From NCBI GenBank assembly GCA_017392345.1, contig JAFOVN010000022.1, positions 1-38,788 of the forward strand: 38,788 nt of DNA, written 5' to 3'. The position numbers and the translations under genes were made by a program. Source of the DNA: Alphaproteobacteria bacterium (lineage in GTDB: Bacteria > Pseudomonadota > Alphaproteobacteria > Rs-D84). Under the pieces are notes generated by a model. The model did not search any database, was not told the origin of the DNA, and saw only the letters and a program-made list of their open reading frames with translations. This document shows positions 21,439-22,789 of this stretch, piece by piece. The first letter of the stretch is position 1. Every line of letters begins with the position of its first letter.

Positions 21439-22789
21439 CGACGACACAATCTTTGCATTATCATCTGGGCATGGGAAATCCGGCGTTGCGGTGATTCGCA
21501 TATCGGGCAACAATTTACACGATTTTGCAAAAAAAATTATTGACCGCGCCACCTTGGCGCCGCGACACGTATATTTTACAAACCTGCGCGATGATAATGG
21601 CGAAGTAATCGACCAATGCGTCGTTATCTATTTTGCCGCACCGCACAGTTTTACCGGCACCGATATAATCGAAATTCAATGCCACGGCGCACCGGCGGTT
21701 ATAAATAAAATCTTTGAATTTTTGCGCGGGCATAATATGCGGGTCGCCACGCCCGGCGAATTTTCGCGCCGTGCATTTTACAACGACAAAATGGATTTGA
21801 CGGATGTTGACGGATTGGTTGCGTTGCTTGACGCACAAACGGATAAACAGCGCGCGGCGGCACTGCGTTCCATGATGGGCGGCGACAGTGTGATTTATGA
21901 AAATTGGCGCGACCAAATGTTGGAAATATCCGCATACGCCGCCGCAATGACGGACTATGACACCGACGATTTACCGCCAAACATTTCTGATATAATTTTG
22001 GAACATATAAAAACGCTCTATACGGCGGTTTCCGGCGTATTGGGCAATTACAAAGTTTCACGTGCAATAATGTGCGGAATAAATATCGCAATCGTTGGCG
22101 AAACAAATGTCGGAAAATCTTCGTTGTTCAATCGCATCGTTGGCGCGAACCGCGCCATAGTATCCGATATCCCCGGCACAACACGCGATGTCGTGTCCGC
22201 CCAAATGGACATTGACGGATACATGGTAAATTTATCTGATACGGCCGGCCTGCGCAATACGGTGGATTTTGTGGAAAAAATCGGAATTGAACGAACAAAT
22301 ACCGAAATCGCCAACGCCGATATAGTTTTACATGTCATTGATACCACCAGTTCCCCTTCGCTGGCGAAGGGGCGAAGTCGCGCCGTAGCGTTTCGCGAAG
22401 GCGGATGGCGGGTAGCACCCGACGGGGTAGTGGAAATTTTGATTGTAAATAAATCTGATACAATCGATTCACGCGACATACGTGGCGCAATATATGTTTC
22501 CGCCAAAACCGGTGCGGGCATATCGGAACTTATGCACGAAATTCGGAACCGAATCGCCGAAATCACAAACAACGGCGAAAGCACGGTCATGATAAACGCA
22601 CGCACATACGACCTGTTGATAACCGCGCGCGATGAATTATTTGCGGCATTGAACGATTTTAATGGCGACTATGATATTTTATCTGAACACGTGCGATACG
22701 CGGCGGACGCAATTGGCAAAATACTCGGCACCATCGGCACCGCCGAAATACTTGATAAAACCTTTTCACAATTGTGTTTGGGAAAGTGA
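21431..22789 (+). CDS. mnmE: tRNA modification GTPase MnmE (TrmE)
   Basis: IFALSSGHGKSGVAVIRISG, GETNVGKSSLFN (G1), DTAGLR (G3), NKSD (G4), C-terminal CLGK. The start overlaps the upstream gene by 8 nt. Confidence 0.94.
   Translation: MNNDDTIFALSSGHGKSGVAVIRISGNNLHDFAKKIIDRATLAPRHVYFTNLRDDNGEVIDQCVVIYFAAPHSFTGTDIIEIQCHGAPAVINKIFEFLRGHNMRVATPGEFSRRAFYNDKMDLTDVDGLVALLDAQTDKQRAAALRSMMGGDSVIYENWRDQMLEISAYAAAMTDYDTDDLPPNISDIILEHIKTLYTAVSGVLGNYKVSRAIMCGINIAIVGETNVGKSSLFNRIVGANRAIVSDIPGTTRDVVSAQMDIDGYMVNLSDTAGLRNTVDFVEKIGIERTNTEIANADIVLHVIDTTSSPSLAKGRSRAVAFREGGWRVAPDGVVEILIVNKSDTIDSRDIRGAIYVSAKTGAGISELMHEIRNRIAEITNNGESTVMINARTYDLLITARDELFAALNDFNGDYDILSEHVRYAADAIGKILGTIGTAEILDKTFSQLCLGK
22349..22432 (+). 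repeat. GC-rich palindromic repeat-like segment translated in frame inside mnmE
   Basis: AGTTCCCCTTCGCTGGCGAAGGGG...GGGGTAGTGGAA encodes SSPSLAKGRSRAVAFREGGWRVAPDGVV between G3 and G4. It shares the terminal hairpin CCTTCRC/GYGAAGG and the GGGGTAGT end with the 12268-12542 array. Confidence 0.55.

Follow-up and report, generated by a model that had tools for sequence, protein, structure and literature searches.

How does a GC-rich palindrome come to lie in frame within an essential tRNA modification GTPase, and what carried it there? The question is raised by the mnmE gene of an alphaproteobacterial assembly (GCA_017392345.1, contig JAFOVN010000022.1), in a stretch of 38,788 nucleotides that was analysed as a whole and is called the window below. 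An original prediction, made from the letters of this stretch alone, had described a palindromic repeat-family segment between the G3 and G4 motifs of the encoded G domain. The best overall explanation, to which a probability of roughly 70% is given, is that the segment is a solitary arm of a two-hairpin repeat, that it sits in a tolerant loop of MnmE where it is translated, and that its family is linked to DUF559 nucleases.

The host gene is intact. In the list of open reading frames (ORFs), mnmE is a 452-aa frame at 21431..22789 on the plus strand, and its product matches the MnmE/TrmE structures of the PDB over its full length (phmmer, E 6e-71 to 8e-55). The translation keeps all the motifs of the family, namely G1 GETNVGKS, G3 DTAG, G4 NKSD and the C-terminal CLGK; the TrmE_N, helical and G (G1-G4) domains and the CxGK end are all present, and the orthologs carry PF10396, PF12631 and PF01926. 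A minus-strand ORF at 22048-22605 is an unsupported shadow of mnmE. The GC content rises abruptly within the gene, to 0.65 in 22360-22439 against ~0.45 across the remaining mnmE, as had been noticed at the outset, and the peptide announced there, SSPSLAKGRSRAVAFREGGWRVAPDGVV, is indeed read between DTAGLR and NKSD. The segment had been placed at 22349-22432. It is real, but positions 22349-22351 are a host AGT codon, and the element proper covers 22352..22432 on the plus strand, i.e. 81 nt or 27 codons encoding SPSLAKGRSRAVAFREGGWRVAPDGVV. Its hairpins had been read correctly: first CCCCTTCGC-TG-GCGAAGGGG at 22353..22372 (hairpin 1, or head, recovered by pattern search and folding), then an inner TCGCG...CGCGA, and the tail GGGGTAGTGGAA last. 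The 81-nt element is composite, a canonical 48-nt two-hairpin unit joined to a nested 33-nt hairpin module, CGAAGTCGCGCCGTAGCGTTTCGCGAAGGCGGA (22373..22405), and it folds as single-stranded DNA into three hairpins. The module is missing from otherwise identical alleles of the L003/P0001 type, and by this comparison appears to be a second-tier insertion into the 48-nt unit, between GAAGGGG and TGG. Hairpin 2 and its tail complete the element at 22406..22432 (TGG-CGGGT-AGC-ACCCG-AC-GGGGTAGTG; folding). Chance or an assembly artefact was considered and discarded: the long form is identical in two independent assemblies (L129, L130), and P0002 is found on 5-6 contigs.

The insertion becomes visible when the alleles of related organisms are compared. 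A search by protein yielded 120 MnmE orthologs, 69-96% identical, and all those with a named source are labelled as alphaproteobacterial metagenome-assembled genomes (MAGs). Most are 431-433 aa long and read ADIVLHVIDINGSVTPVAENEILVINKSD, with ~11 residues between strands beta4 and beta5; orthologs of 90% overall identity that lack the element read DINGSVTPVAENEIL in the loop. Relatives 85-90% identical to the window protein have an empty, shorter loop with a different peptide, as the original prediction expected of repeat-free orthologs. The empty site, written as GGTTCGGTCACACC and present in L001/L002, has the DNA sequence GAT ATC AAC GGT TCG GTC ACA CCG GTT GCA GAA AAT GAA ATT, while the L003 allele is filled with the 48-nt form, whose unit reads TCC CCT TCG CTG GCG AAG GGG TGG CGG GTA GCA CCC GAC GGG GTA GTG there and in P0001. 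In both the 48-nt and the 81-nt alleles, 24 nt of the ancestral loop (TCG GTC ACA CCG GTT GCA GAA AAT) are gone, and the window protein is 19 aa longer than the short-loop baseline of its clade (net +57 nt). To the question of insertion or replacement, the answer is therefore both: the 48-nt unit and the 33-nt module were added, and 24 nt of host loop disappeared. Read from these alleles, the event at the loop would be an insertion, then a nesting, plus a small replacement, probably in that order. The loop of E. coli, by whose length replacement had seemed as likely as pure insertion, proved a misleading yardstick. MnmE of E. coli and Thermotoga has 20-25 residues between beta4 and beta5, helix alpha3 included, and the proper baseline is the 11-residue loop because the beta4-alpha3-beta5 connection is mostly gone from this clade. 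Little or nothing of alpha3 remains across the clade (22320-22450 compared with E. coli and T. maritima MnmE), and this short alpha3-less loop may be a reason why the site tolerates insertions.

The insert was also mapped onto a predicted structure, an AlphaFold model built from a 42-sequence alignment with a mean predicted local distance difference test (pLDDT) score of 69.8. Residues 308-331 have a pLDDT below 50 and form no helix; they lie between strands 298-302 and 334-340 (beta4 and beta5). The surface exposure suspected earlier is borne out at the level of the model, in which the insert is a disordered surface loop on the alpha3 side of the G domain, with the predicted peptides SSPSLAKGR / GGWRVAPDGVVEILIVNK running across it. 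In a Ras-like fold, the alpha3 side faces away from the nucleotide-binding site.

Is this segment isolated, or does it belong to a family? The pattern CCTTCRC-N2-6-GYGAAGGGG-N12-42-GGGGTAGT was scanned with one genome per species. Further genomic copies, on which the original prediction had staked its claim, are numerous: at least 163 in at least 119 stretches, the copy numbers and the coding fraction based on these listed matches being rough. Among the matches listed, the hosts are mainly Candidatus Enterousia, termite-gut 'Rickettsiales bacterium' MAGs and rumen or gut Alphaproteobacteria, and the termite-gut MAG Nl494_bin11 alone holds dozens of copies. Matches also recur in Caedibacter taeniospiralis, a Deferribacteraceae MAG and others, and single ones occur in Francisella, Flavobacteriales, Kapaibacterium and Spirochaetia. 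A few of the singletons may be due to chance or binning errors, and one Actinomycetes match clearly is. The family can be defined as TCC-CCTTCRC-loop-GYGAAGG-GG followed by a variable paired second hairpin and then by GGGGTAGT, with conserved flanks that stretch the unit to A-A-A-N-TCC ... GGGGTAGT-GGT. The mnmE segment has all these parts: its head is the commonest among the at least 163 copies, and its hairpin 2 and tail fit the consensus second half, GGGG-TG(G)-stem-loop-stem-(A)C-GGGGTAGT-GGT. Within the window, the first hairpin and the 3' end said to be shared by mnmE and an intergenic array are shared indeed. CCTTCRC-N2-6-GYGAAGG occurs six times (none in 100 shuffles), in five array units (12268-12515) and the mnmE copy, and GGGGTAGT five times against 0.31 expected, always within these two loci. 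Array copy 4 (12438-12454) reads CCTTCGC/GTGAAGG and thus has the A>G change without its compensatory partner, as described. A covariance model, R1, gives 59 bits to the 48-nt core as found in L003; run with its filters off, it matches nothing in the window but the array and the mnmE copy, the latter in two pieces owing to the nested module.

The variation of these hairpins bears on the nature of the constraint. Although the pattern leaves the middle region free, the helix of hairpin 2 keeps its register: all four bases occur at positions 4-7, with a complementarity of 81-88% in register and ~35% off register. In an alignment of 40 sequences, 93.4% of the hairpin 2 cells are paired (41-60% in slid controls), and double-change cells number 84 against 24 in shuffles, none of 500 shuffles being as good. 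The two kinds of mismatch are equally rare (12 G-T and 8 A-C), and therefore nothing favours a structure formed by RNA only; DNA hairpins or a strand-symmetric constraint fit better. Folded as single-stranded DNA, the 48-nt unit, the array unit and the 81-nt form have z-scores of -3.9, -5.9 and -2.0, respectively. No Rfam family reaches its gathering score over the whole window, and only noise appears at E up to 10 around both loci.

The mnmE copy is not the only one inside a gene. Of the 163 copies listed, 18 (~11%) stand within a stop-free frame that continues for 60 codons or more on each side, in both orientations and several phases, and host genes confirmed by Pfam encode PriA, tRNA-dihydrouridine synthase (Dus), MutS, RecC (in Francisella), ArgRS and RlmN (two copies). 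One reading frame is stopped by the TAG of the forward tail; the peptides observed come from the open frames. The ends of the nested module, GTCGCGCCGTAGCG...GGCGGA, match a hairpin-2 module that is joined to at least four different heads in Nl494_bin11, so that the family can be called modular. This MAG (L046 3600-5500, L035) is riddled with several hairpin repeat families, including a CGTC-1-like GTCATTCCCGCG...GGGAAT, and one 794-aa ORF contains many repeat-derived peptides (NHPGGxATTPPPLAGN).

The mnmE loop itself has been occupied repeatedly. That a mobile or expanding palindrome settled between G3 and G4 with the frame unbroken, the core of the original prediction, agrees with the kept G motifs and with the empty and filled alleles seen in DNA. 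At least seven element variants in all are found in this same loop across lineages, in both orientations and also as pairs, and alleles ~2-7% from the query outside the loop already show six site states: empty, 48-nt, 81-nt, another single unit and two kinds of pair. In P0007 and P0036, a unit TCCCCTCTAGAGAGGGG-...-GGGGTGTG is a pure insertion before GTC/GTA ACN CCG, and P0037 has a trimmed version of it. The pairs are reverse plus forward in P0004/P0033, forward plus reverse in P0021/P0040/P0041. A second hot spot near codon 38, empty in the window allele, accounts for variants of 446-465 aa and is occupied in several relatives (L123 10113, L125 10116, L127 2197, L129 10114); more copies lie directly after the mnmE stop codon in L001 and L128. 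All the occupied full-length orthologs from the protein search keep their reading frame. The neighbourhood varies too: the window, L003, L126 and L127 possess a peptidase S8 gene (20281-21438 in the window) that separates ruvA from mnmE and overlaps the start of the latter, whereas L001, L123-L125, L128 and L129 lack it.

Occupied alleles also seem to pass between strains. Of 36 positions upstream of the N-terminal hot spot, 14-16 separate filled from empty alleles, whereas only 2 separate two filled alleles whose genes are 12% apart overall. In the flank downstream of the G-loop, 9-11 of 60 positions distinguish close relatives, which differ by 3.7-4.6% over the gene as a whole, and a gene just 71% identical in protein has the 48-nt unit (47/48 identical) with an unchanged right junction. 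Since flank haplotypes and the 48-nt unit are shared between divergent genes, the element travels with a short flanking tract, as expected from homologous recombination and especially from homing.

In order to find recurrent neighbours, all the ORFs of the repeat-bearing loci were clustered. One small family of ~120-140 aa recurs, in eight loci, and corresponds to DUF559 (PF04480, E 4e-32); a forward unit usually lies just upstream of these genes and a reverse unit usually overlaps the stop codon or follows it. The gene-carrying unit measures ~430-600 nt, with a DUF559 gene between two arms that are most often inverted repeats. This association was tested independently on 80 metagenome loci picked by protein similarity alone, with an alignment of these DUF559 proteins, from environments that include termite gut, freshwater, sediment, human gut and fermenters. 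A forward (left) arm lies at most 160 nt upstream of the DUF559 gene in 63 of the 80 loci (~1% expected by chance), a reverse (right) arm lies downstream in 58, and 48 have both; elsewhere in these loci the arm density is 0.15 per kb. The commonest head in these loci is CCCCTCCTTTGGAGGGG, followed by the tail GGGGTGGT. Hairpin 2 usually differs between the two arms of one unit, and most of the copies linked to DUF559 have a tail that has drifted to GTGG or GTGT. The array units of the window have the same GGGGGGGACCGC...GCGGTGGGGTAGT subtype as the DUF559 arms of L036 and L094, and in one MAG, RGIG8185, an occupied mnmE loop (L126) coexists with a DUF559 unit (L094). Among solved structures, 3HRL (E 2e-24) is matched by the DUF559 profile and so, weakly, is the catalytic domain of I-Bth0305I (3R3P, E 9e-4), in agreement with the published grouping of Vsr, DUF559 and I-Bth0305I (PMC3424549). 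DUF559 genes have been reported as enriched among predicted targets of programmed inversion, as expected for genes between inverted repeats. The family was also compared with miniature inverted-repeat transposable elements (MITEs), which are insertion sequences shortened by internal deletion to terminal inverted repeats with a target-site duplication: pairs of forward and reverse arms without a gene exist (P0040 within mnmE; after the mnmE stop in L001/L128), but most copies are single arms, and a consistent target-site duplication was not seen.

Some observations on these units stand apart. In Enterousia-type loci (L036, L059 and L063, and also L042 and L084), the gene upstream of the DUF559 unit has its 3' end repeated directly on either side of the whole unit, over 45-60 nt (perfect over 52 nt in L063). 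Such duplication of host DNA is not general and was not retained as a defining feature of the units, given that six scored metagenome units were flagged for it, mostly because of other repeats. The E. coli DUF559 gene ycjD (L212 3860-3990) likewise has two copies of its 3' end on either side of a GC hairpin, and a boxC-like sequence follows; R1 gives no match at this place, and no kinship of these hairpins with the family is proposed.

On this basis, the mnmE segment would be a non-autonomous 'solo arm' of a family of ~45-nt GC-rich two-hairpin repeats, inserted in the short beta4-beta5 surface loop of the G domain and enlarged later by the nested module. It would bring no benefit to MnmE and would simply be translated, persisting as a length divisible by three, stop-free in the frame used, within a disordered, exposed and tolerant loop. 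By analogy with REP/REPIN-RAYT systems (repetitive extragenic palindromic sequences, their inverted doublets and the associated tyrosine transposases) and with homing endonucleases, a DUF559 nuclease could make breaks or nicks through which arms and arm pairs are copied to new sites, and occupied mnmE alleles may then spread between strains by homologous recombination with a short flanking tract. Several points weigh against this interpretation. Neither the window nor the 20-kb syntenic loci contain a DUF559 gene, nor do the 135 kb sampled from Nl494_bin11, the most repeat-rich MAG. One DUF559 gene, P0131, occupies a single locus, after smpB, in 17 of 17 carrying contigs; the gene itself therefore does not look mobile there, and it resembles single-copy RAYTs more than an actively jumping gene. 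For the same reason, occurrence of one DUF559 protein in different contexts was dropped as a proof of mobility. The geometry of the arms varies, with a reverse-gene-forward-reverse order in L213, and a consistent target-site duplication or common target motif was sought at the junctions and not found. No activity of DUF559 proteins on such arms is known, and the translation of the insert, like the nuclease-driven mobility and the order of events, is something that we infer.

Among the competing explanations, the one that fares best dispenses with any dedicated enzyme, yet it is unlikely. The hairpins would spread by replication slippage, template switching and gene conversion, and the DUF559 genes, in an equally improbable corollary, would be a favoured landing site or use the arms as insulators or terminators. 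Such a process suits the modularity of the family, with its freely recombined heads and second hairpins and its nested module, and the tandem expansion of the array; plain recombination accounts for the spread with flanks, and the fixed DUF559 locus of one species is also in keeping with it. It leaves unexplained why the unpaired TCC head, the TG linker, a G.A mismatch and the GGGGTAGT-GGT tail are kept across phyla. Unpaired parts conserved while the stems vary look like recognition by a protein, and the tie to one small nuclease family holds across very different environments. Less probable still is an ordinary GTAG-tagged REP/REPIN moved by a RAYT, the DUF559 association being incidental. 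The tail has a GTAG beside a hairpin, and the repeats resemble REPs in their size, their inverted dimers and their largely intergenic position; intragenic REPs are documented too (PMC3733652). However, a tblastn search with E. coli RayT over 1.39 Mb of element-bearing DNA gave nothing convincing (best E 0.07 over 30 aa), within the limited sensitivity of a single query on partial genomes; the arms flank DUF559 genes instead, the tail of the DUF559-linked copies is mostly GTGG or GTGT, and classical REPs lack the conserved head hairpin. Finally, a benefit of the insert to MnmE or its mRNA, as a new loop function or a regulatory RNA hairpin, is very improbable: the 81-nt form is identical in the window and L129/L130 despite flank differences of ~5%, and the gene is intact, but close relatives have no insert or have unrelated variants, in one orientation or the other; the peptide, disordered in the prediction, shows free variation, repeats of this family are also present in intergenic DNA and in genes unrelated to mnmE, and neither an Rfam match nor the G-U excess expected of an RNA structure was seen.

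A broader proposal can be made tentatively, at odds somewhat short of even: the insert would be an arm that strayed from an undescribed class of selfish elements, spanning several phyla and made of a DUF559/Vsr-like PD-(D/E)XK endonuclease gene and two-hairpin arms. In this class, and with the same reserve, the DUF559 gene would support swarms of gene-less arms in intergenic DNA and, in frame, in essential genes. A literature search found no description of this repeat family or of its DUF559 association. Were the proposal true, it would constitute a nuclease-based counterpart of REP/RAYT and would provide both a function for the large DUF559 family and the missing enzyme of a widespread GC-rich palindromic repeat. 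The in-frame insertion itself is an instance of a known phenomenon, best known from Rickettsia, where no enzyme is tied to it; what is added here, in uncultured gut Alphaproteobacteria, is the DUF559 association and the extreme turnover at one site of an essential gene, where insertion, nesting, trimming and recombinational spread in the same loop can be read from natural alleles. The DUF559 link makes two questions experimental, namely what moves such repeats and what DUF559 proteins do. In practice, the family accounts for many strange peptides of predicted proteins ('SPSLAKG...' and 'PLLWRG...', for example), and it is a warning for annotation, ORF starts and ends near these repeats being unreliable, as with a recA ORF artificially extended into the array.

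This array, the other locus of the family in the window, lies at 12265..12548 on the plus strand and consists of five tandem units (62, 61, 48 and 61 nt and a degenerate last one), recognised by Tandem Repeats Finder (period 61, 100% matches), the pattern and R1. Its left junction is exact with respect to the empty sites of L001-L003 (TTTTTTTAT|TCCCC), and 68 nt separate it from the start codon of recA (ATG at 12196, minus strand), upstream of which it could affect the promoter or leader. The listed recA ORF (11123-12274, 383 aa) is 26 codons too long and reads into array unit 1. A 325-aa ORF (12611-13588) between recA and a major facilitator superfamily (MFS) transporter gene, whose L129 counterpart has no Pfam match, is absent from L001 and L003; the array stands at the edge of this larger indel. 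A second repeat family, with GTTAGTGTAAGT-type direct motifs around a GC-rich hairpin (GTCACGACCGCGGCGCGGTCATGCCGCGACGGGTG), occurs at 12555-12600, 15152-15227 and 18887-18935, and also in L213 (3783-3860); two 49-nt copies are 98% complementary, and its motif is also found after the mnmE stop in L123/L125/L126/L129 and the smpB stop in L213. Lastly, a 300-nt direct repeat of 79% identity (8833-9132 and 9853-10152) lies within the adjacent ORFs 8137-9144 and 9145-10161, which are probably paralogous; syntenic genes in related loci match glycosyltransferase family 2.

How does this family compare with known systems? The Rickettsia palindromic elements (RPE), reportedly described by Ogata and colleagues in 2000, had been invoked as the precedent, and they hold as an analogy of behaviour, which does not by itself make the present repeats part of their family. 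In both cases, palindromes lie in frame within conserved housekeeping genes of Alphaproteobacteria, are absent from orthologs and also occur between genes; both provide extra surface peptides (by a presumed translation for the mnmE insert) and are polymorphic between close relatives. RPE-1 measures ~100-150 bp, while RPE-4 and RPE-6 are CGTC REPs, with 8-9 bp stems starting with AT and a CCA tail. The present family has two hairpins and a GGGGTAGT tail, and it is hosted by gut and termite-gut lineages and by other phyla instead of Rickettsia; as judged from the published CGTC-1/4 peptides and description, the length and the architecture, its sequence appears to be a different one. RPE-4 and RPE-6 were equated with CGTC-tagged REPs in the literature (PMC3733652), and membership in that group was examined since a reverse hairpin 2 reads CGTC-stem-...-CCA; it was rejected because the published CGTC-1/4 description and peptides differ, the CGTC-1 peptides VIPAKAGI and SFPRKRES coming from GTCATTCCCGCG...CGCGGGAAT and not from a unit of the mnmE type. 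Moreover, RPEs and CGTC REPs have no known enzyme, whereas the present units flank a DUF559 nuclease gene. Given that CGTC REPs lack a dedicated transposase (Di Nocera et al.), a nuclease partner for a REP-like family is of interest.

The likeness to REP/REPIN-RAYT systems concerns the organisation, with short GC-rich hairpins arranged as singletons, inverted dimers and clusters, a GTAG-containing tail that may correspond to the unpaired tag of REPs, a small and usually single-copy gene between repeats, and many gene-less copies. Some of these are intragenic and often fall in DNA-repair and tRNA genes; Di Nocera et al. report intragenic REPs in such genes, dimers that encode 20-30 aa, and recB genes of Xanthomonas in which distinct REPs occupy nearly one and the same site. 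The differences concern the gene between the repeats, a PD-(D/E)XK (DUF559/Vsr-like) nuclease and not an HUH/Y1 transposase (no RAYT gene having come out of the tblastn search above), and the unit, whose tail follows hairpin 2 but has GTGG/GTGT variants and a GGG between stem and tail, and which carries an extra conserved head. This architecture is common to several phyla, whereas REP families are mostly lineage-specific. The present repeats are placed neither among the RPEs nor among the REP/REPIN-RAYT systems.

Fungal mitochondria are said to contain comparable mobile GC clusters, double-hairpin elements and 'byps' (Paquin and colleagues in 2000, Lang and colleagues in 2014). These are likewise short GC-rich hairpins of AT-richer genomes that enter protein-coding genes; they are organellar, share no sequence with the present family and, for byps, are skipped by the ribosome. 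Plain translation is favoured over such skipping in mnmE because every occupied full-length ortholog from the protein search keeps its frame.

The last comparison concerns the EDxHD/Vsr-like homing endonucleases such as I-Bth0305I, with free-standing genes in 'fractured genes' (PMC2677866, PMC3239194). The nuclease fold, the selfish-element context and the filled alleles with their flanks, reminiscent of co-conversion, are common to both, and a nuclease of the Vsr/DUF559 fold is encoded within the present unit (PF04480; matches to 3HRL and 3R3P). Known members reside in group I introns, in inteins or between split inteins and have one target site; here, in contrast, the gene is flanked by hairpin repeats that are also found gene-less at many unrelated sites.

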